From positions 29,181 through 93,180 of the forward strand of contig JBAZPC010000002.1 in assembly GCA_041648395.1 (NCBI GenBank): a stretch of 64,000 nucleotides of DNA, given 5' to 3'. Position 1 is the stretch's first letter, and each line of letters begins with the position of its first letter. The notes beneath the pieces were generated by a model. That model saw nothing but the letters and a program-made list of their open reading frames with translations. It did not search any database and was not told the DNA's origin. The position numbers and the translations under genes are program-made. Below, piece after piece: positions 1-60,790 of the stretch. The stretch comes from Minisyncoccota bacterium (GTDB taxonomy: Bacteria > Patescibacteriota > Minisyncoccia > UBA9983).

Positions 1-589
1 GCGCGGGAGAAAAATATCTTGCCGGAACTTTTTTGATAATTTTCGGCTCGCCGTATGCTTTAACGCTAATAGAGAGGATTGATTCTTTGCCTGCCCTGAG
101 CGAAGTCGAACGGGCAACCATTCTTTCTGCCACTTCTTTTTGCACCATCAAAACCATTCGCGACGGCTGCTTTGCCCCGAGCGAAGTCGAGGGGTCCCCT
201 TCCAAAAATTTTCGCAAAAAATGCGAGGTGATATAGTAAGGAATATTGGCAACAATCTTGTAGTCAGTAGTCAGCATTGAGTAGTCAGTAAATTTTAATA
301 TATCGCCGTTTATTATTTCTAAATTAGAGTATCCCACTTTCCGGCGATCGCTAGATTTTGGTATACTCTTAAATTTTTCATTCAGATAATCAGCCAGTCG
401 TTCATCTTTTTCAATGGCAATCACTCGTCCTCGCGGCACCGCTTTCAGTAGCGCCTCTGTTAAAATTCCCTTGCCTGGCCCGACTTCCAAAATAATATCA
501 TCCGGCTTTAAATCCGCCGTCTTCATGATGTCAGCGATAATTTTTTTAGAATTAAGAAAATTTTGTCCGAGAAATTTATTCGGCTTCAT
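1..589 (-). CDS. rsmA: 16S rRNA (adenine1518/1519-N6)-dimethyltransferase RsmA/KsgA, N-terminal ~196 aa; gene runs off the window start
   Basis: Own translation of the minus strand from ATG(rc) at 587-589 gives MKPNKFLGQNFL...LEVGPGKGILTEALL (SAM-binding motif) ...NIPYYITS. It is absent from the ORF track because no stop lies in the window. Its ATG overlaps the pcrA stop (ATGA). It contains an in-frame heptamer repeat at 260-292. Confidence 0.75.
   Translation of the reverse strand, partial: MKPNKFLGQNFLNSKKIIADIMKTADLKPDDIILEVGPGKGILTEALLKAVPRGRVIAIEKDERLADYLNEKFKSIPKSSDRRKVGYSNLEIINGDILKFTDYSMLTTDYKIVANIPYYITSHFLRKFLEGDPSTSLGAKQPSRMVLMVQKEVAERMVARSTSLRAGKESILSISVKAYGEPKIIKKVPARYFSPA
260..292. 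repeat. Heptamer tandem repeat (tagtcag/cattgag units; AGTAGTCAGTA family), in frame within ksgA
   Basis: It encodes the TDYSMLTTDYK segment. Confidence 0.8.
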
Positions 590-2514
590 AAAATTTCAAT
601 GATTTCTTCTTCTATTAATTGATTTTCGTTTTTCTCCAACTTCATCAAATGCTCCGGGATGTCCGACAAAAAGCGCGACGGGAGATTCATTTGCCGGCCG
701 CCGAAAATTGTGCGGACAATACTGAACGACAAAAATAATTTTTCCTTGGCGCGCGTGAGCGCGACATAAAATAATCTTCGCTCTTCCTCCTCTTTTTCCG
801 CGTTATTCGCGCCGAAGCCAGAGTGCGGAAATAATCCTTGCTCCATCCCGACAATAAAAACATTTTCAAACTCCAGCCCCTTGGCGGCATGGACGGTCAT
901 CAAACGCGCTCCTTCTTTTTTATTTTTGTCGCCAAAATCCAAATTATCTTGGTCGCTCATTAATGCCGCGTCGGTAATCATTTTTTCCATTCCCAACGGT
1001 GTCTCAAGCGAGTCATAGCGCGAGGCGATACTTACCAATTCCTTTAAGTTCTCCAGCCGTTCTTTGTCGTCATCGCTTCCGTTTTCCAAAAAATCCTGGT
1101 AGTCGGTTTTTTTCATAATAAATTTAACCACTTCCGACGGCCGGCTATTTTCAATCTTTTCTTTTATTTGGTCAAGAACAGCCAGAAAATCCCCTATTTT
1201 TTTCTCCATCTCTATCGGCAGTTTTTTTTGAGCAAAATAATTAAGGATACTCACTTTGCCGATTCCGCGCGGAGGCACATTGATAACCCTTTTGAAATCA
1301 AGGAGGTTGTCGCGATTCAAGGCCGCCCGAATGAAAGAAAAAATATCTTTTACTTCTTTGCGTTCATAAAATCTCGTGCCGAGAACATTGTACGGAATCC
1401 CGCGCTTCAAACATTCTTCCTCAAAAATCCGCGACTGGAAATTCGCCCTGTATAAAACAGCAACCTCCGAAGGTTTAACCTTCGTTTTAATCAGCTCTTT
1501 TATTTTATGAACGACAAATTCCGCCTCCTCTTTCTCGTTCATCGCCTCAAAAAGAGAAATCACCGCGCCTTCTTCGCGGGTGGCAGAAAGTTTTTTCTCC
1601 TTTCTCATTTTATTTTTTTCTATCACTCTTGCCGCCGCCTCCAAGATATTTTTCGTTGAGCGATAATTTTCTTCAAAGACAATAGTTTTAACTTCCGGAA
1701 AATCTCTTTCAAAGTTTATGATGTTTCTGAAGTCCGCTCCCCGCCAACCATAAATCGCCTGGTCAATGTCGCCGATGACGCAAATATTTCTGTGCTTCTC
1801 CGCTAAAATTTTTGAAAGTTCATATTGGCTTTTGTTTGTGTCTTGATATTCGTCAATTAAAATATATTGCCATAAGTTTTGGTAATGGCTTCTCGCCTCT
1901 TTGTCTTTTTTAAAAAGAAGAACGGTTTTTAAAATAAGGTCGTCAAAATCCAACGCCTGATGAGCCTTTAGTTTTTTTTCATATGCATCCCAGATATTGC
2001 TTAATTTTCTCGGGAAAAAATCCCGGCCGGCGATTTCTTCAAAATCCTCGCAGCTTATCAGGTCGCCCTTGTATCTTGAAATCATATTCAGCATTTTATC
2101 CGGTTGAAACTGCTTTGGGTCAATGCCCAATTCTCTGATTGATTCTTTGATGACTTCCAGCGCGTTTTCTTTGTCAAAAATGGAAAAATTTTTGTTTATG
2201 CCCAGGCCTCTCCCGTGATTGCGCAAAATAAAAACCCCAAGGGAGTGGAAGGTGCTGACGAACGGAGTAGTCAGTATTGAGTAGTCAGTAGTCAGTAATT
2301 TATTTATCCTTTCCTTCATCTCGCCCGCCGCCTTGTTGGTGAAAGTGATGGCCAAGATTCGCTCCGGCTCCGTTCCCTGCTCCACCAAATGGGCGACCCG
2401 ATGGGCGATGGCTCTGGTTTTGCCCGCTCCGGCTCCGGCCAAGACAAGCAACGGTCCATTTTTATGCAAGACCGCTTCCTTTTGAGCTTCATTTAGTCCC
2501 TCTAAAAGATTCAT
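586..2514 (-). CDS. pcrA: ATP-dependent DNA helicase PcrA/UvrD family
   Basis: Walker A GAGAGKTR, UvrD motifs (TFHSLG, DEYQDTN, VGDIDQAIYGWRGA) and 642 aa length. It contains an in-frame heptamer repeat at 2266-2298. Confidence 0.9.
   Translation of the reverse strand: MNLLEGLNEAQKEAVLHKNGPLLVLAGAGAGKTRAIAHRVAHLVEQGTEPERILAITFTNKAAGEMKERINKLLTTDYSILTTPFVSTFHSLGVFILRNHGRGLGINKNFSIFDKENALEVIKESIRELGIDPKQFQPDKMLNMISRYKGDLISCEDFEEIAGRDFFPRKLSNIWDAYEKKLKAHQALDFDDLILKTVLLFKKDKEARSHYQNLWQYILIDEYQDTNKSQYELSKILAEKHRNICVIGDIDQAIYGWRGADFRNIINFERDFPEVKTIVFEENYRSTKNILEAAARVIEKNKMRKEKKLSATREEGAVISLFEAMNEKEEAEFVVHKIKELIKTKVKPSEVAVLYRANFQSRIFEEECLKRGIPYNVLGTRFYERKEVKDIFSFIRAALNRDNLLDFKRVINVPPRGIGKVSILNYFAQKKLPIEMEKKIGDFLAVLDQIKEKIENSRPSEVVKFIMKKTDYQDFLENGSDDDKERLENLKELVSIASRYDSLETPLGMEKMITDAALMSDQDNLDFGDKNKKEGARLMTVHAAKGLEFENVFIVGMEQGLFPHSGFGANNAEKEEEERRLFYVALTRAKEKLFLSFSIVRTIFGGRQMNLPSRFLSDIPEHLMKLEKNENQLIEEEIIEIL
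2266..2298. repeat. Heptamer tandem repeat (AGTAGTCAGTA family), in frame within pcrA
   Basis: It encodes the LLTTDYSILTTP segment. Confidence 0.8.
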
Positions 2515-2759: not shown

Positions 2760-3740
2760 TTGCTTTTGGCTTTTTTTGTCTTTTCCTCTACGGCTCACGC
2801 TGGCTTTTTTTCTTTTTTAAATAATATCCTTGGTTCAAAAAACCAAGAAAAACCGATTTATAATTCACAAACCGTTTCCCTTTTGGAAGGGTCGCTATCT
2901 CCCGAATCGGGAACAGGCAAAGGCGGAGGAGATATAACAATTGTCAATAATGCCCTTTTGCCCGACTCTGGACCGTTGGGCACTATCGCCGACATAAAAG
3001 ATAGGAGGGCAACGCCCGACCAGATAAGCATTTATGTGGTTAGAAAAGGGGATAACATTTCCGAAATAGCAAAAATGTTTGATGTTTCGGTAAACACTAT
3101 AATTTGGGCAAACAGTTTAGCTTCCGGGGAATCAATAACTCCTGGTCAAATTCTCGTCATTCTTCCTGTTTCTGGCATTCAGTACACGGTCAAAAAAGGC
3201 GACACGGTGAAAAGTATTGCAAAAAAATTAAGCAGTGACATAACAGAAATCCTCCAATATAACGGCTTGGCGATAAACGACAATTTAACTGAAGGCCAAA
3301 CAATAATAATTCCTAACGCAGATTATTCGGAAACGGAAAAAAGCCCGCCTTCCACTCAATCCATAAAACCAAAAATTTCAAACACGCCGTTTTATGCCGG
3401 ATATTATATGAGGCCCATTGAGGAGGGAAGAAGGTCCCAGAAAATTCATGGATACAACGCCGTTGACTTGGCTGATTCATGCGGAACGCCGGTTATGGCC
3501 GCCGCTAGCGGAGATGTTCTTATAGGCAGAGGCACGGGGTGGAATTCCGGATACGGGCATTATATTGTTCTCGTTCATTCGAACGGCACGCAAACTCTCT
3601 ACGCGCACTTGAGCGAAAACATCGCCACGGAAGGATGGCATGTGACGCAAGGACAAATAATTGGCTACATTGGTTCAACTGGCAAGTCAACTGGCTGCCA
3701 TGTCCATTTTGAAATCCGCGGCGCCCAGAATCCGTTTTAA
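2760..3740 (+). CDS. Secreted peptidoglycan hydrolase with two LysM domains and a C-terminal M23 peptidase domain
   Basis: N-terminal signal/TM segment, two LysM-like segments (YVVRKGDNISEIAKMF..., YTVKKGDTVKSIAKKL...), and an M23 motif GYNAVDLA...GHYIVLVHSNGTQTLYAHL...TGCHVHFEIRG. Confidence 0.85.
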   Translation: MLLAFFVFSSTAHAGFFSFLNNILGSKNQEKPIYNSQTVSLLEGSLSPESGTGKGGGDITIVNNALLPDSGPLGTIADIKDRRATPDQISIYVVRKGDNISEIAKMFDVSVNTIIWANSLASGESITPGQILVILPVSGIQYTVKKGDTVKSIAKKLSSDITEILQYNGLAINDNLTEGQTIIIPNADYSETEKSPPSTQSIKPKISNTPFYAGYYMRPIEEGRRSQKIHGYNAVDLADSCGTPVMAAASGDVLIGRGTGWNSGYGHYIVLVHSNGTQTLYAHLSENIATEGWHVTQGQIIGYIGSTGKSTGCHVHFEIRGAQNPF

Positions 3741-3777
3741 GTATTTAACCGACTTACGATGTCGGTTTTAGTTAAAA
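3711..3777 (+). repeat. Cassette boundary repeat R1: ~30-bp core gaaatccgcggcgcccagaatccgttttaa plus hairpin aaccgacttacgatgtcggtt
   Basis: The core overlaps the last 10 codons and stop of the M23 peptidase gene. A related core recurs at 4769-4798 and 5324-5353, and the hairpin recurs at 5352-5372. Confidence 0.8.
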
Positions 3778-3780
3778 TTT

Positions 3781-4770
3781 ATGAAAAAACGAAATCAAGC
3801 ACAAACAGGCATTGCCCTTATAGAAATCGTCTTAACAATAATGATAATTACTGTAATTGGTGGAATCATTTATTTTTATTGGCAGAAAAATATAAATTAT
3901 ACAGAAATTCAACAAATAGAAAGTCAGCAACAAGCCGTGCAACAGAAATTCGAATGCAATTTATCACCGAAAGAAAATTACATTATAGTTAATGGTAAAG
4001 TAAATTTCCCTCGTGGTATTAAAAACTATACTGATTACGAAATCGTTGTTGCATCCGATACATACAAAATTTCTCTGGATGGCAATTTTTGTGCAAGTGT
4101 TCCTAATGGAGTTTTTATAATTGGAGTGTCTTCGAGTAACGAAAATGATTTTTCTTTACTTTCTGTGATTGTCTCAGAAAAAGATACTGATATCATTATT
4201 AACTCTAAAACAACAGCAGTTGGATTACTTTTTACAACACCTTATTTTCTAAACAACGACCCGGTTAAGGCAACTGAAATTATTAAACAGATAGAAAATA
4301 ATTCAAAAGTAAAAATATTATCCGACCAAATTGAAAACAAGGAAACATTATCTATTAATGATATTGAAAACAGGCCAATATCCGACGCATTTAAAAACGC
4401 TCTGAACTCTGTATTGGGGACAAAAAACGATAACAATAATTCTAAAATTCAACCCCAGGTCATAAATTTTGAAATGACCATAAAACCAGCAAATTATTAC
4501 AAAAACCAAAAAGGAGAAAGTTACATTTATGGGAAACTTATTGACTTAGATAAAAATGCACAAATTGAATTTAAAAAATATCTTGCAACGAAATATTTCG
4601 ATGTAGGATCTAGCCAAATTAGAGTTGACATAATAAACGATACTAAATTTCTGGGCAAACAACCACTTGATGACTACAATAACTTCGAGGTTAAAATTAA
4701 AGGCTATATTATAAGTATAAACGATATTGATAAAGTGCGCATTATTGCTAACGAAATTTTTGTATTTTGA
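3781..4770 (+). CDS. Type IV pilin/pseudopilin-like protein (prepilin-type N-terminal hydrophobic segment)
   Basis: The N-terminus MKKRNQAQTGIALIEIVLTIMIITVIGG resembles the prepilin cleavage/methylation segment. The rest is Asn/Ser-rich and extracellular-like. Confidence 0.5.
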   Translation: MKKRNQAQTGIALIEIVLTIMIITVIGGIIYFYWQKNINYTEIQQIESQQQAVQQKFECNLSPKENYIIVNGKVNFPRGIKNYTDYEIVVASDTYKISLDGNFCASVPNGVFIIGVSSSNENDFSLLSVIVSEKDTDIIINSKTTAVGLLFTTPYFLNNDPVKATEIIKQIENNSKVKILSDQIENKETLSINDIENRPISDAFKNALNSVLGTKNDNNNSKIQPQVINFEMTIKPANYYKNQKGESYIYGKLIDLDKNAQIEFKKYLATKYFDVGSSQIRVDIINDTKFLGKQPLDDYNNFEVKIKGYIISINDIDKVRIIANEIFVF

Positions 4771-4798
4771 AATCCGTGGAGCAAAGAACCCGTTTTAG
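4769..4798 (+). repeat. Cassette boundary repeat R2 (core only): gaaatccgtggagcaaagaacccgttttag
   Basis: About 75% identical to the R1 and R3 cores. The pilin-like gene's stop codon TGA lies inside it. No hairpin follows. Confidence 0.7.
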
Positions 4799-4836
4799 TT
4801 TGATTTTTAATTTAAGCGTGGTATCATCATCGCTAT

Positions 4837-5070
4837 ATGGTCACCATTACCATTCCTCAAAAACTAATAAAAAACGACGACCTAATAATCATTCCTCGCA
4901 AAGAGTATGAAAAGCTTTTCCGTGTTTTTAAAGGGAAAAAACTTACTCCGCTTGACCGAAATTTAGACGAGGCGATTTCAGAATATAAAGCTGGAAAAAG
5001 TTTTGGCCCATTTACCACCGCCGAACAAGGTATCAAATTTCTTAAAAGTCACAGAGCCAAGAGAAAATAA
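4837..5070 (+). CDS. Putative antitoxin (AbrB/MazE-like swapped-hairpin N-terminus) of the RelE/ParE module
   Basis: 77 aa with VTITIPQKLIKNDDLIIIPRKEYEKL, an AbrB/MazE-like beta-hairpin pattern. It ends 3 bp before the RelE-like gene. Confidence 0.45.
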   Translation: MVTITIPQKLIKNDDLIIIPRKEYEKLFRVFKGKKLTPLDRNLDEAISEYKAGKSFGPFTTAEQGIKFLKSHRAKRK

Positions 5071-5073
5071 AAA

Positions 5074-5319
5074 ATGAAACATATTTTTCTTGAACGCTTT
5101 GTAAGGCAACTGGAAAGTTTCCCAATTGATACACAAAATAAATTTTATAAACAATTAAATTTTCTGTTAAATAATATTCGCCACCCATCGCTTCACGCCA
5201 AGAAATATGACGAAACGAAGGGTATCTGGCAAGCAAGAGTGGATAAAAATATCAGATTTTATTTTCAAATTGACGGCGAGACTTATATATTACTTGGGGT
5301 AGAACGCCATAAGAAATAA
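5074..5319 (+). CDS. RelE/ParE-family type II toxin (mRNA interferase)
   Basis: 81 aa with HPSLHAKKYDETKGIWQARVDKNIRFYFQIDGETYILLGVERH, typical RelE/ParE superfamily core, immediately downstream of a small partner ORF. Confidence 0.65.
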   Translation: MKHIFLERFVRQLESFPIDTQNKFYKQLNFLLNNIRHPSLHAKKYDETKGIWQARVDKNIRFYFQIDGETYILLGVERHKK

Positions 5320-5323
5320 ATTA

Positions 5324-5372
5324 GAAATCTGCGGCACCCGAAATCCGTTTTAACCGACTTACGATATCGGTT
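5324..5372 (+). repeat. Cassette boundary repeat R3: core gaaatctgcggcacccgaaatccgttttaa plus hairpin aaccgacttacgatatcggtt
   Basis: Third copy of the core plus hairpin, directly after the RelE gene stop. Translated it reads LEICGTRNPF*, mimicking the M23 C-terminus FEIRGAQNPF*. Confidence 0.8.
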
Positions 5373-5384
5373 CTAAATTAAATA

Positions 5385-5660
5385 ATGAAAAATAATTCTG
5401 TTAAATTTAATGATGGCTGGTGTTTTGCTACAGTAAATGGGCGTTTAGCTGAAATTTATTTTGATAAAAAACGTGGAATTTTTGCACACTGCTATATAGA
5501 CAAAAAAGAATACAACAAATCAGAACAAAAAATGATTGCTTCGGATATTAAAAAATATAAATTTGTTTATAGAAATGGATATTATTTTGATAAAATACAG
5601 AAAGTAAAACACAAAAAAGTTAGCATCTATAAAATTTTTCCAGAGATTAGAAAAATATAA
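5385..5660 (+). CDS. Hypothetical protein (91 aa), last ORF of the cassette array
   Basis: ORF starting 12 bp after the R3 hairpin. No recognisable motif. Confidence 0.3.
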   Translation: MKNNSVKFNDGWCFATVNGRLAEIYFDKKRGIFAHCYIDKKEYNKSEQKMIASDIKKYKFVYRNGYYFDKIQKVKHKKVSIYKIFPEIRKI

Positions 5661-5675
5661 AAAATTACTCAATTT

Positions 5676-7214
5676 TTACTTCGGCCGGTATTGCAATGCT
5701 TCTAAAATGTGTTTTTCTTGAATTTCTTCGGCACCCTCTAAGTCGGCGATGGTGCGCGCCAGCTTGATGACGCGATGGTAGGCCCGACCGGAAAGGTCAA
5801 GCCGTTTGGCGGCTTGGTTTAAAATGTTGGTCACACTATCTGAAAGCGGGCAAAATTTTTTCAGATCTCTGACTCCCATCTCGCTATTAGTTAAAATTTT
5901 CATACTTTTCCCGCCCTTGGCGGAAAATCTTTCACCTTGAATTTTTCTCGCCTTTATCACCCTTTCTTGAATTGCCTTTGACGGCTCGCCTGAAATTTTT
6001 TCGTCCGACAATTTTTCATGCTCCACCTGCGGCACTTCCAGCCATAAATCAATCCTGTCCAAAATCGGGCCGGAGACCTTTCTGGAATAACGCATCAAAG
6101 AACCCTGCGAACAAACGCAAGGTTTTGTTTTTGAATTCAGATTTCCGCAGGGACAGGGATTCATGGCGCAAATGAGAATGAAACGCGCCGGAAAGGTGAG
6201 CGACTCTTTGGCGCGGGAAATGTTTATAACACCGTCTTCTAGCGGCTGACGCAGGGCCTCAATCACCCGCCTTTCAAATTCCGGGAACTCATCAAGAAAC
6301 AAAACACCGCGGTGGCTAAGAGTAATTTCGCCCGGCCGCGGATAAGTTCCTCCGCCGACCAACGCCACATAAGATGAAGTATGATGCGGACTGCGAAACG
6401 GCCTCTCGCTCAAAAAATCTTCCTGCAACGCGCCGGCCACACTGTGAATCAAGGTCGTTTCCAAAACTTCCTCAAAAGAAAAAGGAGGCAGAATGGCGGC
6501 GAGCGCCTTGGCCAACATGGTCTTCCCTGTGCCGGCGGGACCGACCATTAGAACATTATGTCCGCCGGCGGCGGCGATTTCCAAACCGCGCTTGGCGCTC
6601 TCTTGCCCTTTGATGTCAGAAAAATCAAAATTTATTTCTTCAATTAAGTCCTTAAAATCAATTTGCGTTTCCGGTTGTTCGTTAAGATTAAAATCTTTTT
6701 TGCTGTCCAAATGATTTACTATTTCACTTAATGAATCGCAGCCGAAAATTTTTATTCCTCTCACAAGGGCGGCCTCCTTCGTATTTTTATTCGGCACAAA
6801 AATTTCTCCAAAGCCCTGTTTCTGGGCGTATTTTACCAAAGCCAAAGTTCCTTTGACGGGCCGAATCGCTCCGTCAAGCGCCAGTTCGCCGAGAAAAATT
6901 TTTCCGTTCACGTCAAAAGAAATTTGTTTTGAGGCGAGAAGATAAGCCAAAGCGATGGCTAAGTCAAAAACCGGCCCTTCTTTTTTCAAGTCGGCCGGCG
7001 CTAGAGAAATCGTCACTCTTTGATTTTTCTTTTGCGGAGAAACGAATCCGGAATTTTTGATGGCCGCTGAAATTCTGTCTTTTGATTCTTCCACCGCCTT
7101 GTCCGGAAGGCCGACGACGGAAAAAGAATGCAAACCCTGCATCAAATCAACTTCAACTTCTATAATATTGGCTTTTAGACCTGTAACTTGGGCGGAGTAA
7201 ACTTTAACAGCCAT
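5676..7214 (-). CDS. comM: YifB/ComM family Mg-chelatase-like AAA+ ATPase
   Basis: N-terminal Lon-like domain, Walker A GPAGTGKT, and a ChlI-like core with MNPCPCG arginine finger/zinc region. 512 aa. Confidence 0.85.
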   Translation of the reverse strand: MAVKVYSAQVTGLKANIIEVEVDLMQGLHSFSVVGLPDKAVEESKDRISAAIKNSGFVSPQKKNQRVTISLAPADLKKEGPVFDLAIALAYLLASKQISFDVNGKIFLGELALDGAIRPVKGTLALVKYAQKQGFGEIFVPNKNTKEAALVRGIKIFGCDSLSEIVNHLDSKKDFNLNEQPETQIDFKDLIEEINFDFSDIKGQESAKRGLEIAAAGGHNVLMVGPAGTGKTMLAKALAAILPPFSFEEVLETTLIHSVAGALQEDFLSERPFRSPHHTSSYVALVGGGTYPRPGEITLSHRGVLFLDEFPEFERRVIEALRQPLEDGVINISRAKESLTFPARFILICAMNPCPCGNLNSKTKPCVCSQGSLMRYSRKVSGPILDRIDLWLEVPQVEHEKLSDEKISGEPSKAIQERVIKARKIQGERFSAKGGKSMKILTNSEMGVRDLKKFCPLSDSVTNILNQAAKRLDLSGRAYHRVIKLARTIADLEGAEEIQEKHILEALQYRPK

Positions 7215-7630: not shown

Positions 7631-8497
7631 TTACTGATTCAGATATTGGGGCAGCGCAAAACGTCTGATAATTTCTTCCAAGGCATCTTCTCCAGAAGAC
7701 ACGACAAGATAATCTCTATTTATGAAAGAATAGGAAATAACAGGGATGCCCGACGAGCCGTTCAAAACTCTGGCGTCATGATTTCTTATTACTTTGTCCG
7801 TAAAAGAACTCATGGCCGAAACAATGTCCTTTATCATAAAAATGTCTTTTAAATTGTCAGCCATATTTTCTTCCCATTTCATCATTGAAATAAAAGCTTT
7901 TTCATATGATTTTATTTTGAAAATCAAAGATGGCTGATTATTGTAAACGCTCAACATAAAACTTCCTTCAAAAATATCGGCCGTGTCGCCCGGAAAGGCG
8001 ACGCCAAAATTATCAAACAACTCTTTTGTCGTCGCTAATCTTTTTGTCTGCCCGCCTTCTTTGATGATAGCAATATAGAGGAGTTTGTTTTCTTTGACCG
8101 GCTCTTTGACAATACCCAAAATACTACCAAGAGTTGTTTCTTTTTCAAAATCAGAAATCAGAACCGGCTTAGGCAAAGAAACAACCGGCTGTACAACTTT
8201 TTTCCCGCCAAAAATCGCAAAGCCGCCAATCACCGCGCCGATAATAATTAAAACAGCTCCGGCCAAAATTATGTTTCTTTTGGTAAGAAGGGAAGCGCTT
8301 GGAGCAGCGAAAGAGCCGAAGCCCCTTTTTACCTGCGCCGCCGCCACGTCAACCATGGAAATGCCTTCATCTTTTATGTACTGCGAACTATCGGACTTAA
8401 ACGTCCGCAAAACCGGCAGACCTGTTTGCGCAGATGAGTCCGCTTGTTTAGAACCTCCTTCTTCTGTTGTTGTTTTCTCTTCTGGGAGCATGATCAA
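7631..8497 (-). CDS. Membrane-anchored hypothetical protein
   Basis: Single TM helix (IILAGAVLIIIGAVIGGFAIFGG). No known motif. Confidence 0.35.
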   Translation of the reverse strand: MIMLPEEKTTTEEGGSKQADSSAQTGLPVLRTFKSDSSQYIKDEGISMVDVAAAQVKRGFGSFAAPSASLLTKRNIILAGAVLIIIGAVIGGFAIFGGKKVVQPVVSLPKPVLISDFEKETTLGSILGIVKEPVKENKLLYIAIIKEGGQTKRLATTKELFDNFGVAFPGDTADIFEGSFMLSVYNNQPSLIFKIKSYEKAFISMMKWEENMADNLKDIFMIKDIVSAMSSFTDKVIRNHDARVLNGSSGIPVISYSFINRDYLVVSSGEDALEEIIRRFALPQYLNQ

Positions 8498-8919
8498 AAT
8501 AATGGGTCTTGCGACTTTAAATATTTTTCCGCTTTTTGTATAACCATTTTAACAAAATTCAAATAATCGCTGGCCTCTTTATTGGAAATTATTATTCCGC
8601 CTTCATATAAATCTAGATTTCTTTTCCTTCTCATTTTGTCGCCTATTATTCCCACATTTTTATCGTTCAAAATTATAGATAATTTCTCTAAAATTTTAAC
8701 ATGGTGGCCCTTTCTGCTTTTAATCCTGTGGCCATGCAACGCTATTAAAGCAATGCCTATTTTTATTAGGGCATTATACGAGAAATTAAAAATCACCTCC
8801 TCTTTTTTATTTTTGGCGGCAATATGAAAATCTTTCAACGCGTTGCTAAAATATTTAGAGATTATTTTCTTGTCAAATTTATTTTTCTGGAAAAATCTTG
8901 AGTCAAAACTTATGTTCAT
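8494..8919 (-). CDS. HEPN-domain protein (toxin-like half of a HEPN/MNT pair)
   Basis: 141 aa helical protein with a 4-bp overlap to the upstream nucleotidyltransferase gene. The arrangement is typical of HEPN/MNT modules, but the R-x4-6-H motif is not clear-cut. Confidence 0.5.
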   Translation of the reverse strand: MNISFDSRFFQKNKFDKKIISKYFSNALKDFHIAAKNKKEEVIFNFSYNALIKIGIALIALHGHRIKSRKGHHVKILEKLSIILNDKNVGIIGDKMRRKRNLDLYEGGIIISNKEASDYLNFVKMVIQKAEKYLKSQDPLF

Positions 8920-9461
8920 ATTATTTTTATGTATTTTGAGGAAAAAATGTCTTTTATAAAATGATCCCTTTTTTGTTTTTTTCTTTTAAATTCTTTTTCC
9001 GTCATTTCAATGGAATTTATTTCTCTCCCTGTTAATTCTTGGATTTCTAAAATGGCCTTTTGCAATTTTATCATATCAAAATCGCCAATAATCAAAAGAT
9101 CAATGTCGCTTTCCGAAACAAACCCGCCTTTGGCGTATGAGCCGAAAATGTAAGCAGAATCAATTCCTTTTATCTTTTTTAGCTTATCAGTCAAAATTTT
9201 TTCAAACCCAAATCCTTTCAAAATAATTTTTTTGTATTCTTTGAGAAACGGGTATTTTTTATTCAAAGAGAAAAATCTTTCTTTTCCGCGAAATTCATCT
9301 AGGAGCAAGCCGTCTTTTTTAAGTTCCAAAAGCTTTTTGTGCAGATTTGACGGATTTTCTTTTATTATTTTTGCCAACTCATTGACGTAAAACTTTTCGC
9401 CTTCATTGAGAAAGAAAAAATTGAGTGTTTTTTGAACCAATTTTGACCGCAGTGATATCAT
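8916..9461 (-). CDS. Minimal nucleotidyltransferase (MNT) with N-terminal wHTH
   Basis: GS-x9-DxD motif (IFGSYAKGGFVSESDIDLLI) preceded by a winged-helix-like N-terminus. It overlaps the HEPN gene by 4 bp. Confidence 0.7.
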   Translation of the reverse strand: MISLRSKLVQKTLNFFFLNEGEKFYVNELAKIIKENPSNLHKKLLELKKDGLLLDEFRGKERFFSLNKKYPFLKEYKKIILKGFGFEKILTDKLKKIKGIDSAYIFGSYAKGGFVSESDIDLLIIGDFDMIKLQKAILEIQELTGREINSIEMTEKEFKRKKQKRDHFIKDIFSSKYIKII

Positions 9462-9564
9462 GGTATGATTATACCATAATTATAGTAAATTTCTACAACA
9501 CACAATTTTTTATTTCTTCTTCTATTGAATCAATTATATATTAATATTATCTAAGCTAAAAATT

Positions 9565-9590
9565 AAAGGCGGGAAACATTCCCCGCCTTT
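9565..9590. terminator. GC hairpin aaaggcgggaaacattccccgccttt
   Basis: Palindromic stem aaaggcggg/cccgccttt flanked by T/A runs, downstream of minus-strand ORF 9650-9904. Confidence 0.5.
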
Positions 9591-9649
9591 TTAAATCATA
9601 TTTTACAATTTTTTCTTCATACTTTTAGAAAGGGTGGCGAGGTGAGGTT

Positions 9650-9904
9650 TCACCTCGCCAAGTCAGAAAGAACTATTTGTCCGCAAAGGACTTTTTTAAC
9701 GGTATCTTTGTGCCCGATACGAATGGGCATGTTTCCTCCACATTTTGGACAAGTTAGAGTTTCACACATTTCTAACATCCATTGTTTTTTATAGCCACAT
9801 TTTTTGCAGATATAAATACCGTCATATTGCATACTATCATCAAAAAGATCATAGTAATGCCTTAAAATAAACCTGTTGACTATGCCACAGCCCATATCAA
9901 ACAC
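9650..9904 (-). CDS. Small zinc-ribbon protein (CxxC...CxxC)
   Basis: 84 aa with CKKCG...CPKCGG. Confidence 0.35.
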   Translation of the reverse strand: MFDMGCGIVNRFILRHYYDLFDDSMQYDGIYICKKCGYKKQWMLEMCETLTCPKCGGNMPIRIGHKDTVKKVLCGQIVLSDLAR

Positions 9905-10224
9905 CTCCTTTTTTATTTAACCTTTTCTAAAAGCATTTTATAAAAGAGCAATATTTCCGATAACTTCTTCGTATGCGAAATTATTCTAAGGGTAAAATAG
10001 CAAAACTATCCTTTAAGGTCAAGGAAAATTTTTTTGGCAATCTATTGATGCCGAAACGTTATTTTGTAGTTTTTCTAGTCTTTTATGTGGCTGTGGATAA
10101 ACTTGCTTGAAAGAAATAATTATGATATATTACAGGCACAAGCAATGGCTTATCTGATTTTGATCAAAACCCGCCTAAAAAGCGGGTTTTTGACTTCTTT
10201 AATAGTGATTAAATCTGTCTTTAT

Positions 10225-10440
10225 TTAATCTAAACTCAAAATCATCCACGTATAAAATATTATCAAAAATTTCTTACCGTAAGAAAAGTTTTTGACTAGA
10301 TTTCCAAGTTCTTTAATTCCCACTTTCCATCCAAGATTTTCCTTCCATTTATCCACGTTGCCATAATCAACAACAGTAATCGTTCTTTCTCTTTTTTCTT
10401 TAAAACTATCTAGAAATTCTTTTATGTCTAGCTGGTTCAT
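10225..10440 (-). CDS. Hypothetical small protein
   Basis: 71-aa ORF only. Confidence 0.2.
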   Translation of the reverse strand: MNQLDIKEFLDSFKEKRERTITVVDYGNVDKWKENLGWKVGIKELGNLVKNFSYGKKFLIIFYTWMILSLD

Positions 10441-10460
10441 ATTTAAACCATTTTAAACCA

Positions 10461-12650
10461 TTATCTCCTTCCTCTAAAATTATTATCTCTACGAGGAGGA
10501 CGAGGACGGTCGCCGTTTCGGTCTCCTCCATTGCCTCGCGGGTCAAGTTCGGGATTGTAGTTCGGGTCGGCTTGTTTTAGGGAAAGATTAATTCTTCCTT
10601 TTTCATCCACGCCGATAACTTTGACCGTGACAATTTGGTCCGGCTTCACGATGTCCGTCACTTTTTCCACACGGAACGGCGCCAGTTCGGAAATATGAAT
10701 GAGCCCCTCCTGCCCGCCGCCGATGTCCACCATAGCGCCGAATTCAAACATACGCGTAACGGGGCCAGTGATTGTTTCGCCCGCTTTAAATTCATGAGTC
10801 AAATCCTCAACCATTTTCTTGGCGGCATCCGTATCTTTGTGATTTTTTCCGGTGATAAGCACCGTGCCGTCCTGTTCAATATCAATTTCCGCGCCGGTTT
10901 TTTCCGTAATACCTTTAATAACTTTCCCCGCCGGCCCGATAACCGCCCCGATTTTTTCCGGGTCAATCATAATTTTGACGATTCTCGGCGCGTAAGCGGA
11001 AAGCTCTTTTCTTGTTTCCGGAATTTCTTTAAGCATCGTTTCCATAATTTCCTCTCTCGCCTTTTTCGCCTGTTTCAATGTTTTTTCCAAAATTTCCACA
11101 GTCACGCCGTCAACTTTAACGTCCATTTGAATAGCCGTGACGCCTTCCTTCGTTCCCGCCACCTTGAAATCCATATCGCCATGATGGTCCTCGGGGCCTT
11201 GGATATCCGTGAGAACTTTAAAATTTTTCTCGTCCTTCATCATTAATCCCATGGCAATTCCCGCCACAGGCGCCTTAATCGGCACACCGGCGTCCATTAA
11301 AGCTAAAATTGATGCGCAGATTGAACCTTGCGAAGTGGAGCCGTTTGACGCCATTGATTCGGAAACAATGCGAATGGTGTAAGGAAAAATTTCTCGCGAA
11401 GGAATAATTGCCGACAGCGCCCGCTCCGCCAAAGCGCCATGCCCGATTTCGCGCCTTCCCGGATTTCCCATTCTGCCCGTCTCGCCCGTGGAAAACGGCG
11501 CAAAATTATAATGATGCATAAAATGTTTTTCCGTTTGCACTTCCATTCCTTCAATCAATTGGACATCTTTCGGCCCGCCAAGAGTGACAACAGACAGAAT
11601 ATGCGTTCCGCCTCTGAAGAAAACGCCGGAGCCGTGGAGGGTCGGCAAAAATCCCGCTTTGGCATAAATATTTCTCAATTCATCCATTTTTCTTCCGTCC
11701 GGCCTTTTGTCGTTTTCCAAAATTTCTTTATGAATGATGTCATTCACCTCCTCTTCATAGAGATCGTCGGCTTGATTTTTCTTTTCCTCGCCGAATTTTT
11801 CCGCGGCGGTCTTCATCCATTGATGTTTAAGGTCGCCGATTTCTCCTTTTGCGCCGCCATAAATGGCTTTATCTAAGTCCTTGGCAATTTCTTTTTTGAA
11901 AAAGTCGCGCATGTCGGCCAGTATTTCATCCAAATCAACTTTTGCCTTTTCTTTTCCAATTTCCGAAATTATTTTTTCCTGAAATTTTTGAATAATGGCA
12001 ATTTCTTCAAGCGCCTTTTCCATTCCTTTAATGGTAATATCTTCCGGAACTTCTTTCGCGCCCGCCTCAATCATGTTTATTTTTCCATTTGTTCCGCAGA
12101 TAACGGCATCAAGGATAGAGCTGTTACGCTCTTCATAAGTCGGATTGACGAGAAAATTTTGTCCTCCGTCAGCTGACGGAATGTAGCCCATACGGACGGC
12201 GCCGACCGGTCCGCCCCAAGGGATGTCCGATAGGCCGAGCGCCAGCGAGGCGGCGATGATAGCCGGAATGTCGGAATCATTTTTAGTGTCAATGGAAAGA
12301 ATGAGCATAGTCACTTGCACTTCGTTTCTCATTCGCTGGTCAAACAGCGGTCTGATGGTGCGGTCAATGACGCGGCCGGAAAGAATCGCTTCTTCCGACG
12401 GCCTGCCCTCCCTTCGCATAAATCTGCTTCCAAGAATCTGACCGGCGGCATAAAATCTCTCTTCATAGTCAACGGAGAGTGGGAAATAATCCAAGCCCTC
12501 GCGCTTGTTTTTTCCCATCACCGCCGTGGCAAAAACCGCCGTGTCTTCATAACGGACAAGAACGGAGCCGTTGGCTTGGTCGGCTAAGTCGGATATTTCA
12601 ACGGACAATTTCTTGCCGCCGAAACTTGTTTCGTATTTTTTTATTTGCAT
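10461..12650 (-). CDS. pnp: Polyribonucleotide nucleotidyltransferase (PNPase)
   Basis: 729 aa with two RNase PH-like domains and KH + S1 domains at the C-terminus. The N-terminus MQIKKYETSFGGKKL is typical. Confidence 0.95.
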   Translation of the reverse strand: MQIKKYETSFGGKKLSVEISDLADQANGSVLVRYEDTAVFATAVMGKNKREGLDYFPLSVDYEERFYAAGQILGSRFMRREGRPSEEAILSGRVIDRTIRPLFDQRMRNEVQVTMLILSIDTKNDSDIPAIIAASLALGLSDIPWGGPVGAVRMGYIPSADGGQNFLVNPTYEERNSSILDAVICGTNGKINMIEAGAKEVPEDITIKGMEKALEEIAIIQKFQEKIISEIGKEKAKVDLDEILADMRDFFKKEIAKDLDKAIYGGAKGEIGDLKHQWMKTAAEKFGEEKKNQADDLYEEEVNDIIHKEILENDKRPDGRKMDELRNIYAKAGFLPTLHGSGVFFRGGTHILSVVTLGGPKDVQLIEGMEVQTEKHFMHHYNFAPFSTGETGRMGNPGRREIGHGALAERALSAIIPSREIFPYTIRIVSESMASNGSTSQGSICASILALMDAGVPIKAPVAGIAMGLMMKDEKNFKVLTDIQGPEDHHGDMDFKVAGTKEGVTAIQMDVKVDGVTVEILEKTLKQAKKAREEIMETMLKEIPETRKELSAYAPRIVKIMIDPEKIGAVIGPAGKVIKGITEKTGAEIDIEQDGTVLITGKNHKDTDAAKKMVEDLTHEFKAGETITGPVTRMFEFGAMVDIGGGQEGLIHISELAPFRVEKVTDIVKPDQIVTVKVIGVDEKGRINLSLKQADPNYNPELDPRGNGGDRNGDRPRPPRRDNNFRGRR

Positions 12651-12746: not shown

Positions 12747-13013
12747 TTAAATTGATAATAGCTTTAATGTAGGACGCCCGCCACTTATCCACTGAAAAAC
12801 AGTAAGTATTAATAGAGAAATAATAAATATTATAGTTGCTAAATTTTTATATTTACTATGACTTTCTTTTAATGTGTAATTATCAATGATAAATAAACTA
12901 AAGACATATAGAATTATTATTAATCCAATTAATATTGGATGAGCTACAAATCCACTAACAAGCGCGATAAGTATTGCTACAAGTATTGATGGTATTGATG
13001 TTAAAATTTCCAT
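12747..13013 (-). CDS. Small membrane protein
   Basis: 88 aa with two predicted TM helices. Confidence 0.3.
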   Translation of the reverse strand: MEILTSIPSILVAILIALVSGFVAHPILIGLIIILYVFSLFIIDNYTLKESHSKYKNLATIIFIISLLILTVFQWISGGRPTLKLLSI

Positions 13014-13026
13014 ATATCAAATTATT

Positions 13027-13545
13027 TTACCCCTTTATCAAAAACTTTTTTGTGTTTTCGTCCATGTCGATGAACTCGTCGGCGATTTCTTTTATTTTTG
13101 CCGAGGTTGAACGCCCGAAGGCGATCACCTCCACACGCCTGCCTTGATTTTTTAAATATTCCACAAGCGGCGTGTAATCCCCGTCTCCGCTGGCAATGAC
13201 AATGGTGTCAACAATCTCCGCCGTCTTGATGGCATCAACCGCGATGCCCACGTCCCAGTCCGCTTTTTTCATTCCGCCGTAATATTCTTGAAGTTCTTTG
13301 CTTCTAATCTCAATGCCAAGTTTTGAGAGCGCTTCAAAAAACGGTTTTTCCTCGCCGGTCTTTGTGGAAACAACATAAGCGAAAGCGCGAATGAGCTGTC
13401 TTTGTCCGACAACCGACTCAACCAATTCTTTGAAATTAACTCTCTTTTGATAAATGGCGCGCGCCGAATGATAAAGATTCTGCACGTCAATAAAAACCGC
13501 CACGCGCTGGTTTTTATATTTATCTGAACTAAAGAGAGAGAACAT
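13027..13545 (-). CDS. NYN/LabA-like nuclease-domain protein
   Basis: VFIDVQNLYH...ASGDGDY motifs of NYN/LabA domains. Confidence 0.7.
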   Translation of the reverse strand: MFSLFSSDKYKNQRVAVFIDVQNLYHSARAIYQKRVNFKELVESVVGQRQLIRAFAYVVSTKTGEEKPFFEALSKLGIEIRSKELQEYYGGMKKADWDVGIAVDAIKTAEIVDTIVIASGDGDYTPLVEYLKNQGRRVEVIAFGRSTSAKIKEIADEFIDMDENTKKFLIKG

Positions 13546-13550
13546 AAATT

Positions 13551-13820
13551 TTATTTTTTCTTAAGCTCCAACTTTTTGGCGAGAGCATCGTATCGTTTCG
13601 CGTCTTTTTTGGAAAGATAATTCAACATTGCCCTTCTGTCGGAAATCATTTTTAAAAGGCCCCGGCGGGAATGGTTATCCTTCGGATGCTTTTTCAAATG
13701 CTTGGCAAGCGACTCAATCTGCTCGCTCAAAATGCCGATTTGCGCCTCGGGCGAACCAGTATCTTTGTCATGAAGATGAACTTTTTTGATTACCGCTTGT
13801 TTCTTTTTGGCTGTTAACAT
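13551..13820 (-). CDS. rpsO: 30S ribosomal protein S15
   Basis: 89 aa. ...HLKKHPKDNHSRRGLLKMISDRRAMLNYL matches S15. The canonical rpsO-pnp neighbourhood is present. Confidence 0.9.
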   Translation of the reverse strand: MLTAKKKQAVIKKVHLHDKDTGSPEAQIGILSEQIESLAKHLKKHPKDNHSRRGLLKMISDRRAMLNYLSKKDAKRYDALAKKLELKKK

Positions 13821-13875
13821 AAGACAAATATATCAAAAACCGCCAAACTTTGCAAATTTTGTTATACTGAAACTA

Positions 13876-14760
13876 ATGTCGCACAATATAAAGGAATTGC
13901 ATCGGCAATTCCTTGAATACTTGGAAATAGAAAAAGGGAGGAGCTTGAAGACGGTTGAAAATTACGACCGAGATTTGAGGAAGTTTTTTGAATTTTCCAA
14001 AATTAAGGCACCCTATGAAATTACAGACGAAGCCGTCCGCAATTTTCGCCTTTGGCTCAACAGAAAGGAATTGAAGAAAAAAACGCAGAATTATTATTTG
14101 ATAAGCTTACGGGTTTTTCTGAAATATCTCGCGAAACTGGGAATAAAATCATTGCCGGCGGAAAGAATTGAGCTGGCAAAAATAGGACAAAGAGAATTGG
14201 ATTTGATAACAGAAGAGGAGTTGGCCAGATTATTGGACGCGCCAAAAGGAAACACCCTGAAAGAATTGCGAGACAAAGCAATTTTAGAATTATTATTTTC
14301 CACCGGCTTGCGCGTTTCCGAATTATGCTCATTAAACCGCGACCACATCACGGACGCCCGAGCCGGCGAATTTTCCGTGCGCGGAAAGGGAGACAAAATA
14401 AGGGTGGTTTTTATATCGGACAGCGCCCAGAAAGCGATAAAGGACTATCTAAATAAAAGGGTGGACACGGAAGAGGCGTTATTTGTAAGCGCCGGAAAAA
14501 ACACAACTCGTTTAGACCGCCGTTCCATTGAAAGAATTGTAAAATTTTACGCCATCAAAGCCGGCATTGCCAAAAAAGTGACGCCCCACGTCATCCGCCA
14601 TTGTTTCGCCACGGATTTGCTTTCCAATGGCGCCGACTTGCGCTCCGTTCAATATCTCCTCGGCCATTCTTCCATCACCACTACGCAAATTTACACCCAC
14701 GTCACAGACAAACAACTCCGCGAAGTGCACAAAAAATTCCACGGAAAAGGAAGAAAATAA
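13876..14760 (+). CDS. xerC: Tyrosine site-specific recombinase XerC/XerD family
   Basis: N-terminal SAM-like domain and catalytic R...HxxR...Y (HVIRHCFAT...LGHSSITTTQIYTH). The start is trimmed from the track ORF (13786) to ATG 13876 because the upstream part overlaps rpsO. Confidence 0.85.
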   Translation: MSHNIKELHRQFLEYLEIEKGRSLKTVENYDRDLRKFFEFSKIKAPYEITDEAVRNFRLWLNRKELKKKTQNYYLISLRVFLKYLAKLGIKSLPAERIELAKIGQRELDLITEEELARLLDAPKGNTLKELRDKAILELLFSTGLRVSELCSLNRDHITDARAGEFSVRGKGDKIRVVFISDSAQKAIKDYLNKRVDTEEALFVSAGKNTTRLDRRSIERIVKFYAIKAGIAKKVTPHVIRHCFATDLLSNGADLRSVQYLLGHSSITTTQIYTHVTDKQLREVHKKFHGKGRK

Positions 14761-57496: not shown

Positions 57497-57877
57497 ATGG
57501 CGAAAGAATCAATTTTAATAGTAGAAGACGACAAGTTTTTCAGGGACTTGGTCTCAAAAAAGCTTGAAAAGAACGGCTTTGAAATGCTTTTGGCCGCCGA
57601 CAGCAAGGAGACGCTTACCCTTTTGGAAGAAAAAAAGCCGTCTCTCATAATTTCAGACCTGATTCTCCCTGGGCTGGACGGCTTTGAACTTATTTCTATT
57701 ATAAAAAAAGACGAAAAGACCAAAGACATACCCGTGATAGTTTTAAGCAACCTTGGGCAAAAAGAAGAAATAGAGAGGGCAATGTCGTTGGGCGCGATTG
57801 ATTTTATGGTCAAAGTGAATTTTACACCAGATGAGATTGTGGAAAAAATCAAAAGGGTCTTAAGCGGAAGGATTTAG
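57497..57877 (+). CDS. Stand-alone response-regulator receiver (REC) domain protein
   Basis: ILIVEDD...D (phospho-acceptor ISDLILPGLDG)...K pattern. 126 aa. Confidence 0.8.
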   Translation: MAKESILIVEDDKFFRDLVSKKLEKNGFEMLLAADSKETLTLLEEKKPSLIISDLILPGLDGFELISIIKKDEKTKDIPVIVLSNLGQKEEIERAMSLGAIDFMVKVNFTPDEIVEKIKRVLSGRI

Positions 57878-58675: not shown

Positions 58676-59047
58676 ATGGAAAAAATTAAAATTCTTGTCG
58701 TAGAAGACGACGACTTTTTTAGAGATACTGTTGCTAAAAGATTAGAACGGGAGGGGTTTGATGTGTCTTCTGCTGGGAACAGCAAAGAGGCGTTGGAAAT
58801 TTTAGAGACAAAAAAGCCAAACATTGTCTTACTAGACATAATTCTTCCCGGAATGGACGGCTTTGAACTTCTTTCTCTAATTAAGAAAACAGAGAGTATA
58901 AAGGACATTTCCGTAATGATTTTAAGTAATCTGGGTCAAAAACAGGACATTGAAAAAGCGCTTTCCTTGGGCGCGAAGGACTTTATGATTAAAGTGAATG
59001 TCAACTTGGATCAAATCGTAGAGAGAATTAAAAAAGAAATTTCTTAA
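58676..59047 (+). CDS. Second stand-alone REC-domain protein (paralog of 57497-57877, about 55% identical)
   Basis: ILVVEDDDFFRD...LLDIILPGMDGFELLSLIKK...LSNLGQKQDIEKALSLGAKDFMIKV. Confidence 0.8.
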   Translation: MEKIKILVVEDDDFFRDTVAKRLEREGFDVSSAGNSKEALEILETKKPNIVLLDIILPGMDGFELLSLIKKTESIKDISVMILSNLGQKQDIEKALSLGAKDFMIKVNVNLDQIVERIKKEIS

Positions 59048-59054
59048 TTTTTAA

Positions 59055-59075
59055 ATTGTCCGCCCGGCAGGATTC
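59055..59075. repeat. 21-bp direct duplicate of the tRNA-Lys 3' end (attgtccgcccggcaggattc), an att-like site
   Basis: Identical to 60787-60807, which comprises the 3' 17 nt of tRNA-Lys plus 4 nt downstream. Confidence 0.75.
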
Positions 59076-59128: not shown

Positions 59129-59185
59129 AACCTCAAACAAATTACGCCCTCGCTTGGGTTAGCGGATTTTTTACTAATATTTATA

Positions 59186-60786: not shown

Positions 60787-60790
60787 ATTG

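Follow-up and report, generated by a model that had tools for sequence, protein, structure and literature searches.

A gene-insertion hotspot between convergent M23 peptidase and comM genes of a groundwater Paceibacteria genome, with stacked modules separated by copies of the peptidase gene's 3' end

The M23-ComM interval and its contents

The subject of this work is the junction between two convergent genes, coding for a LysM-LysM-M23 peptidase and for the Mg-chelatase-like protein ComM (YifB), in a DNA stretch of 64,000 nucleotides (referred to below as the window) from contig JBAZPC010000002.1. The host is a groundwater member of Paceibacteria (Patescibacteria, or Candidate Phyla Radiation, CPR) with a tiny genome. 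The interval between the two genes is filled by four small plus-strand genes arranged in three blocks, and copies of the 3' end of the M23 gene recur in it; a DksA-like gene lies beyond ComM. Over the 1.9 kb separating the M23 and ComM stop codons (3751-5700) the GC content is 26-35%, as compared to 40-57% in the flanks, and the interval is thus compositionally foreign. The M23-comM convergent junction is a gene-insertion hotspot in Paceibacteria, and three AT-rich foreign modules are stacked at it here. The locus is composed of the following features:

586-2514, minus strand: UvrD-like helicase gene, left neighbour of M23
2760-3740, plus strand: LysM-LysM-M23 peptidase gene (Pfam Peptidase_M23 8.7e-26, LysM 1.7e-23), the proposed insertion target
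3706-3740, plus strand: live tail (copy 1), encoding HFEIRGAQNPF-stop; gene-proximal att-like repeat
3747-3767, plus strand: hairpin 1, AACCGAC-TTACGAT-GTCGGTT, 6 nt past the M23 stop and 13 nt before the pilin-like start codon
3781-4770, plus strand: cargo 1, 329-aa pilin-like protein with a prepilin-type N-terminus (QTG followed by IALIE); its stop lies inside tail copy 2
4764-4798, plus strand: dead tail copy 2, FEIRGAKNPF-stop, non-coding, without a following hairpin
4800-4827, plus strand: promoter-like site for the toxin-antitoxin pair, TTGATT-16-TATCAT with TG, directly after tail copy 2
4837-5070, plus strand: cargo 2a, 77-aa putative antitoxin, assigned by position and ending 3 nt before the toxin gene
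5074-5319, plus strand: cargo 2b, predicted 81-aa toxin of the RelE/ParE superfamily
5319-5353, plus strand: dead tail copy 3, LEICGTRNPF-stop, the most decayed copy at the protein level
5352-5372, plus strand: hairpin 2, overlapping the TAA of tail copy 3; left edge of the exchanged ORF91 block
5385-5660, plus strand: cargo 3, ORF91 (open reading frame 91), small protein
5676-7214, minus strand: ComM/YifB gene (Pfam Mg_chelatase 2.3e-92), convergent right boundary of the hotspot

An assembly chimera was rejected as the source of this arrangement, since the identical order was assembled independently in ENA ERZ27249422 and Logan SRR8449827 (two samples), and proteins of the locus are on record at NCBI (Candidatus Paceibacterota bacterium; WC587_00825, WC587_00840) and at JGI. 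At least two independent assemblies agree, and the repeats are shorter than assembler k-mers.

Three copies of a 30-nt core had been proposed from the sequence in an earlier reading of this DNA (the original prediction), and all three hold: copy 1 at 3711-3740 (gaaatccgcggcgcccagaatccgttttaa), copy 2 at 4769-4798 (24/30 identical) and copy 3 at 5324-5353 (26/30). In a repeat search the family extends to the last 34 nt of M23, with 85% identity for copy 2 and 82% for copy 3. The peptides that the prediction had read from the two downstream copies are also correct. Copy 2 retains the clade consensus FEIRGAKNPF-stop, while copy 3 differs from it by 4 amino-acid changes; the Q of the live tail is unique to the window, its relatives having K or R. 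The more advanced decay of copy 3 fits an older position, farther from M23, with the newest cassette adjoining the gene. Copy 2 is closer to the live tail of a related locus, L133 (29/33 identical), than to copy 1 (27/33), and looks like a recently functional tail or a genuine tail of foreign origin.

Duplication of a gene's tail is rare in general. A degenerate pattern allowing up to 3 mismatches matched only copies 1 and 3 in the 64 kb and nothing in any of 100 shuffles. Scored with a position matrix derived from 36 orthologous M23 tails, copy 2 reaches 46 bits and copy 3 reaches 31 bits; the matrix found no further extra copies in related loci amounting to about 1.4 Mb (2.7 million positions on the two strands). 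Copies of a locus's own tail numbered 3 in 36.9 kb of M23-ComM gaps and 2 in the 2.36 Mb outside them. A control search for copies no more than 5 kb away covered 1,197 ORF ends of the window and of related loci. Downstream copies were found for M23 of the window (2 copies), M23 of L019, ComM of L045 and an ORF inside the L051 gap; the remaining matches were a borderline M23 in L032, an unrelated ORF in L046 and an upstream-only case in L071. No copy of the ComM tail was found in the window. The ORF in L051 (12556-13593, 345 aa) has an N-terminus (…ENLLIAWQEFLPGKKNR…) which, judged by eye, resembles a group II intron or retron reverse transcriptase.

The tail repeats are direct, and the core has no dyad symmetry. 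The internal repeat RAATCCG...AAYCCG, described in the original prediction as a likely protein-binding or recombination site, is indeed present. It follows from the codons for E-I-R and N-P, and orthologous tails mostly encode EVR through other codons, so that the repeat is not conserved as DNA and its role as a binding site was rejected.

The cargo genes are tightly packed, with intergenic spacing of 15-66 nt and no enzyme remnants. The prediction of a pilin-like gene agrees with the prepilin-type N-terminus and with a weak profile match (NCBIfam PRK10506, E=0.005). Among 5.8 billion proteins this product has a single homologue, 74% identical and encoded in L144, where its gene is likewise preceded by a tail copy and half of the hairpin. 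The toxin assignment is consistent with a PHROG RelE-like match (E=2.7e-5), the Pfam ParE_toxin match (E=0.0033, 18.4 bits) being under the 23-bit cut-off. The AbrB/MazE-like identity suggested for the upstream partner did not stand, as the 77-aa protein had no family match in profile searches. The promoter-like region of this pair contains the motif TTGATTTTTAATT, which occurs also directly behind the live tail of L145. ORF91 has 26 homologues, all of them small proteins of Patescibacteria. Their genes are found in the M23-ComM gap (L133, L145), clustered with genes for HicA and for a VirD4-like coupling protein (L143), in runs of small overlapping ORFs (L135-L142) and at an unrelated site (L146); the cluster with HicA and the coupling protein and the runs of overlapping ORFs are mobile-element contexts. 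Phage origin of the modules was considered and rejected: the hairpin occurs in 0 of 2.9 million viral contigs, and PHROG matches are limited to the RelE-like toxin.

Empty and occupied junctions in related genomes

A scan of species-representative genomes yielded about 60 Paceibacteria loci in which the order UvrD-M23-ComM-DksA is conserved. Between the stop codons of M23 and ComM these species have -8 to 4,513 bp, and the filling is unrelated from one species to another; it is this variation of gap size and content that identifies the junction as a hotspot. Inserts are present in about 25 of the 60 species, while in several more distant ones the M23 and ComM stop codons overlap.

Among the closest relatives of the window, four sites are empty: in L083 (M23 90% identical), L132 (89%), L084 (86%) and L134 (79%) the two stop codons are 2-9 nt apart, and neither the hairpin nor extra tails are found there. 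In other relatives the site is occupied, and its content differs. L085 (M23 84% identical) has the live tail, ACTAG, the identical hairpin, a gene for an EamA transporter and a degraded tail remnant (GATCCGCGGGGT...) set against the ComM end. L133 (M23 85% identical) carries an ORF91 homologue as the sole cargo, and the old M23/ComM junction, composed of an M23-tail remnant, AAAC and some 35 nt of ComM tail as a pseudo-copy, is buried there between a newer M23 tail and a newer ComM tail; the hairpin is reversed and lies beside the live ComM end. In L145, where ORF91 is again alone, the order is live tail, TTGATTTTTAATT, degenerate tail, hairpin, ORF91. L144 has a dead tail copy, half of the hairpin and the pilin-like homologue, followed by a different neighbour; the pilin-like cassette thus occupies a different position in another array. 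The search for empty sites suggested in the original prediction had a positive outcome, and empty sites, variable cargo and foreign GC content all support the serial insertion with regeneration of the target which that prediction had put forward.

The block formed by the hairpin and ORF91 (5350-5665 in the window, 316 bp) is 88% identical between the window and L145, whereas the adjacent M23 and ComM genes are 70-71% identical, and the borders of the block are sharp. This difference indicates that the block moves as a unit and has been exchanged between lineages. Such a unit is too small to encode an enzyme.

Tail copies without cargo were found as well. In a second clade (Parcubacteria LiPW_30-like), L021 has a single M23 tail of its own, L017 two and L019 three, at a spacing of 48-54 nt. 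Within L017 10996-11146, L019 10972-11176 and L021 11005-11110 a unit of some 28 nt (GGGTTTCGYCCGA...TTTAG) stands between the tails, and the live tail pairs with the sequence just past the stop (AAACCC...GGGTTT). Possibly these repeats are mini-arrays, or scars, at the hotspot.

Such cargo-free repeats could also be taken to mean that the M23 3' end, together with a terminator hairpin, was merely duplicated locally by slippage or unequal crossing-over, and that unrelated DNA landed later between the copies. The one and two extra own tails of L017 and L019, beside a relative with a single tail, are what such a process would leave. For the window we consider this explanation most improbable. 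Copy 2 is about as distant from copy 1 as the M23 tails of other species are, the closest empty sites show neither the hairpin nor an additional tail, and the pilin-like cassette brings a tail and the hairpin with it into the different array of L144. Moreover, the same cassettes with tail copies are seen, in part, at M23 in several unrelated lineages.

The 21-bp palindrome and the recombinase

A search of the window with up to 3 mismatches finds the palindrome AACCGACTTACGAT[G/A]TCGGTT at two places and no more, where 0 would be expected. The original prediction had the same hairpin following copies one and three, and these are indeed its two places; the folding is as predicted, with a perfect 7-bp stem and a 7-nt loop. 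The 21-mer of the window is found also behind the M23 tail in L085 and ahead of the pilin-like gene in L144 and of ORF91 in L145. In the window's clade (about 100 kb examined) all copies lie inside the M23-ComM gap, beside a live or dead tail and before three different cargo genes. The palindrome clearly travels with the inserted DNA.

The exact 21-mer AACCGACTTACGATNTCGGTT is present in 46 metagenome contigs, beside unrelated genes, in a subgroup of groundwater Paceibacteria, while none was found in 1.35 Mb of other Paceibacteria loci. The dispersed sites include the space between rpsB and tsf, the end of ftsK and a position upstream of a priA-like gene; they are usually 5-30 nt from the neighbouring ORFs, and some lie between core genes at places where nothing suggests inserted DNA. 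Inverted doublets are frequent (L086, L087, L090, L095, L096, L099, L103, L104, L113, L116, L126 and L129) and form a stem of about 21 bp; examples of the element are L096 (1250-1295) and L126 (837-878 and 4418-4434). The copies are commonly A-rich on the left and T-rich on the right, and the orientation of the loop may be flipped between orthologous sites (L092 vs L094). The hairpin was rejected as a general marker of gene-tail duplication, as among some 45 distinct contexts only that of the window repeats upstream sequence downstream. Since the 21-mer is dispersed beside unrelated genes without duplication of their ends, it is not a part of an M23-specific site, and its proposed role as a locus-specific component of the recombination core finds no support. 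That the repeat might be found after unrelated genes had been named in the original prediction as an argument against a cassette system; this turned out to be true of the hairpin only.

The palindrome is a dispersed lineage element, REP-like (repetitive extragenic palindromic) or terminator-like, and is peculiar neither to this locus nor to M23. It had no Rfam match at E<=1. A simple scan for intrinsic terminators did not call the hairpin, yet many copies elsewhere have A-tract and T-tract flanks, so that a role as terminator is conceivable. It resembles REP, BIME (bacterial interspersed mosaic element) and REPIN sequences in being a short conserved palindrome, extragenic and dispersed, which sits within operons and after genes and often forms inverted doublets. 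It differs from REP and REPIN in its low copy density (2 in 64 kb) and in the flipping of a conserved loop between orthologous sites. In a limited literature search no description of REP/REPIN-like elements in CPR bacteria was found. A function as a DNA-uptake sequence is unlikely at a density of 2 per 64 kb and 0 in the other Paceibacteria loci.

With its usual flanks, the palindrome consists of two 9-bp arms in inverted orientation (AAAACCGAC / GTCGGTTTT) and, between them, an asymmetric spacer of 7 bp, TTACGAT, which is conserved. Regarded as a double-stranded site, it offers arms of 7-9 bp and a spacer of 7 bp, yet its occurrences per genome are many. A palindrome of this kind, 21-25 bp long, could serve as the crossover site of a recombinase acting in trans, possibly a lone enzyme of the Xer family, a suggestion which we put forward as a rather doubtful one. 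Were it true, Paceibacteria would possess a family of single-gene cassettes that are free of enzymes and enter through the stop-codon region of housekeeping genes (M23, ComM), and this would be a functional CPR analogue of integrons and of integrative mobile elements exploiting Xer (IMEX), made from different parts.

The window contains one candidate for such an enzyme, about 10 kb from the array:

13786-14760: gene for an Xer-family protein, the sole tyrosine recombinase in the window

Among NCBIfam models, this protein exceeds the cut-off of the archaeal-type XerA alone. Against the integron-integrase models it scores 129 bits versus a cut-off of 265 bits (TIGR02249) and 85 versus 435 (NF011946). 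Its gene is a syntenic core gene: homologues are located downstream of M23, at a distance of 4-10 kb, in over 30 species, at empty and full junctions alike.

The integron and Xer/dif precedents invoked in the original prediction have to be weighed at this point. An integron-like or Xer-dependent (IMEX/pdif-like) system, in which the tail, the palindrome or both would be the crossover site of this enzyme, could account for cassettes that are composed of a single gene or operon, free of integrase and shuffled among genomes. The arms and the 7-bp spacer of the palindrome have the geometry of a tyrosine-recombinase core site, and a gene of the Xer family is at hand. Several features speak against such a system. 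There is neither IntI nor an attC-sized structure, attC sites being 57-141 nt long with R''-L''/L'-R' boxes and extrahelical bases. Nor is the tail core built like a site of the IMEX/pdif type (28-31 bp, with inverted 11-bp arms and a 6-8-bp centre). The tail repeats, being direct and without the dyad of dif, do not bracket the modules as inverted site pairs, unlike pdif, and there is no GC-skew switch at 3.7-5.7 kb. The presence of the Xer-like gene does not depend on occupancy of the site, its scores are far below the integron-integrase cut-offs, and the palindrome occurs also in core intergenic regions free of inserted DNA. On these grounds the integron and the Xer/dif identity of the tail core were rejected, and a system of this general kind appears very unlikely. 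The evidence neither ties the Xer-like enzyme to the array nor excludes it.

Assembly of the array and comparison with known systems

The array is best explained, and in our opinion probably so, by a Campbell-type insertion of cassettes into the M23 3' end, catalysed in trans. In the scheme which we infer, from the circular intermediate and the position of the crossover to the order of arrival and the enzyme, small circular DNAs would have been inserted serially by a single crossover within the last 34 bp or so of M23. Each incoming DNA would have brought along a segment resembling the M23 tail, in most cases with the 21-bp palindrome behind it. Exchange within the tail would have kept the C-terminus of the peptidase intact and displaced the previous tail downstream, to decay there as a non-coding pseudo-tail. 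The newest module would then be the one adjoining M23, and the direct repeats would be scars similar to attL and attR. The recombinase would be supplied in trans, either as a site-specific enzyme or as the host homologous recombination machinery acting on 34-90 bp of homology. The absence of a cassette-borne integrase, already remarked in the original prediction, is what points to a reaction in trans: the modules encode no recombinase, they are packed without enzyme remnants, and three clean decays of integrase-bearing islands would be unlikely.

A second place in the window where the 3' end of a target is duplicated without an integrase counts in favour of insertion of this type. It involves the following features:

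60790-60863, minus strand: tRNA gene, reported by ARAGORN as 'Stop, anticodon tta at position 35'; anticodon loop CTTTTAA
60869-61255: gene of the GIY-YIG family, adjoining the tRNA

A second copy of the tRNA 3' 19 nt, together with some 19 nt that follow downstream (60771-60807), stands at 59041-59075 and is 89% identical over 35 nt. The repeats flank a low-GC (27-35%) island of 1.7 kb with three minus-strand genes and no recognised integrase. Its genes code for a 295-aa trypsin-like protease with a transmembrane segment and for proteins of 147 aa and 72 aa. The anticodon loop fits tRNA-Lys(UUU) read with a one-base register shift, and an artefact is the probable source of the suppressor call.

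Several observations weigh against Campbell-type insertion catalysed in trans. Tail copy 2 has no hairpin, and in L133 the hairpin stands in the opposite orientation relative to ORF91, which means that a tail with a hairpin is not a fixed rule for the attP of an incoming element. No rightmost tail copy survives between ORF91 and ComM, where there are only 15 nt. Most occupied gaps in other species have no tail copies. The length of duplication varies from 20-30 nt (L017/L019) through 34-90 nt here to about 600 nt of ComM in L045, a range which a single site-specific enzyme would not obviously produce. In the M23-ComM gaps of the approximately 60 scanned loci, neither a tyrosine recombinase (phmmer with the Xer-like protein of the window, E<=1e-3) nor an integrase-bearing relative or intact parent element was seen, serine recombinases not having been screened. 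The variable lengths, together with the lack of an integrase-bearing relative, argue against one classical site-specific integrase.

Many of these observations would be accommodated if the hotspot were filled by transformation, with no dedicated site or enzyme: DNA of relatives having other inserts at this junction would be taken up, and homologous recombination would then act through M23 and ComM on either side. The tail copies would be occasional by-products, left either when one homologous join is combined with an illegitimate one or when RecA inserts circularised fragments in the Campbell manner. CPR bacteria are believed to depend on DNA uptake. Inserts in about 25 of 60 species, a tyrosine recombinase detectable in none of them, the scarcity of tail copies among these inserts and the variable length of duplication are all in keeping with such a process. 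In L045 the 3' end of ComM is duplicated around an insert (11690-12301 vs 12839-14372), the 30-nt tails being identical and about 540 nt separating the copy from the full-length gene. In L133 the tails of both M23 and ComM are duplicated, and the dead copies resemble genuine tails of other lineages. On the other hand, replacement by a double crossover does not duplicate its anchor. The borders of the hairpin-ORF91 block are sharp, and the identity of the adjacent M23 and ComM genes is not raised as recombination through the flanks predicts. Moreover, 34 bp at 80-85% identity are a poor substrate for RecA. We regard filling of the hotspot by transformation and homology as unlikely, albeit deserving serious attention.

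Another variable spot in the window is a low-GC (28-34%) block at 8494-10460, between a gene for a 288-aa protein and that of PNPase. It contains a gene for an NTP_transf_2/Polbeta nucleotidyltransferase with a 141-aa partner (HEPN/MNT-like by arrangement) and small ORFs, and its variability follows from the presence of His_Phos_1 and two small ORFs at this place in L084. No tail repeat was seen there in the general scan of ORF tails, no dedicated search having been made. A GC-rich repeat, GCTTGGCTTGCGTGGCGGGCGGGG, occurs with its variants at 59080-59135, 61189-61212 and 63650-63673, and forms a long inverted repeat beside the dead tRNA fragment. Further copies lie within the GIY-YIG ORF, in its N-terminal region, and within an Fpg/Nei-like ORF; there the repeat translates as ...PPATQAKQACLAGVAG... 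or ...PPASPAKRGGRGGG..., and it may represent a second class of palindromic elements, one that tolerates in-frame insertion. A short repeat based on AGTAGTCAG is present at 266-303 and 2266-2303, inside the 5' coding part of the UvrD-like gene (translating as TTDYS-ILTT) and downstream of this gene, and is matched in L133 at 678-713. Two paralogous genes for single-domain response regulators (57497-57877 and 58676-59047) lie 1.2 kb apart and share 200 nt at 71% identity. The region 50996-54322 codes for an 1108-aa protein built of internal repeats of about 310 nt (families D3-D7).

To return to the M23-ComM array, its closest known kinds are tandem accretions of elements without an integrase: cis-mobilizable elements (CIMEs), the ssrA islands of Dehalococcoides and tycheposon islands. 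Tandem accretion at the 3' end of a conserved gene was described for ICESt1 and related CIMEs at fda of Streptococcus thermophilus (PMC5704250), and a tandem array at a gene's 3' end for the ssrA genomic islands of Dehalococcoides (PMC3146451). There, as appears to be the case here, direct repeats of the target 3' end separate successive low-GC islands, the target remains intact, the number and content of islands vary by strain, and some members have no integration genes yet keep attL and attR (PMC5704250, PMC3146451). The locus studied here has the direct repeats expected of such an array (three 34-nt copies, and a right-end remnant in L085) and the empty sites, and no integrase-bearing relative. 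It differs from CIMEs and ssrA islands in that its units are single genes or one operon of 0.3-1 kb rather than islands of 5-30 kb, that the insertion target is the tail of a protein-coding gene, at a convergent junction of a CPR genome, that a 21-bp palindrome is present at most junctions, and that no integrase-bearing member occupies the site in the roughly 60 genomes, with the same restriction to tyrosine recombinases. In tycheposon islands of Prochlorococcus, repeated integration at the same site pushes older elements inward; as in the window, the host is streamlined, and partial target copies and degenerate remnants are scattered in the island (10.1101/2020.12.28.424599). Tycheposons, in turn, have their own tyrosine recombinases and replication modules and use tRNA or tmRNA targets; such hallmark genes were not seen here.

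The likeness to integron arrays and to clusters of attC sites lacking an integrase (CALINs) is one of organization. These consist of small, mostly promoterless single-gene units in one orientation and without a recombinase of their own, the newest unit standing at the entry site, toxin-antitoxin cassettes being common and a hairpin-forming element marking the boundary. In the window, unlike in integrons, the repeat is a host coding end, and the hairpin is only 21 nt long and identical between cassettes. With IMEX and pdif modules the array shares integrase-free units in tandem at one site, toxin-antitoxin cargo and an available host enzyme of the Xer family; it differs in having no 11-6-11 dyad, no position at a skew switch, and direct repeats in place of alternating inverted pairs.

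CPR bacteria have genomes of about 1 Mb with few recognised mobile elements, and the acquisition of accessory genes in this group is, for this reason, poorly understood. At the M23-ComM junction single genes or gene pairs (the pilin-like gene, the toxin-antitoxin pair, ORF91, and a transporter gene in a relative) are added, reordered and exchanged at one fixed place, and this occurs without disruption of the flanking essential genes and without a cassette-borne enzyme. If host recombination alone were responsible, the locus would still be a clean example of how a hotspot is built between convergent core genes. If, on the other hand, a dedicated mechanism acting in trans exists, it would be a new way of capturing genes, in a major branch of bacteria that is uncultivated, and the tail copies together with the palindrome would provide a marker for strain-level gene flux in groundwater metagenomes.

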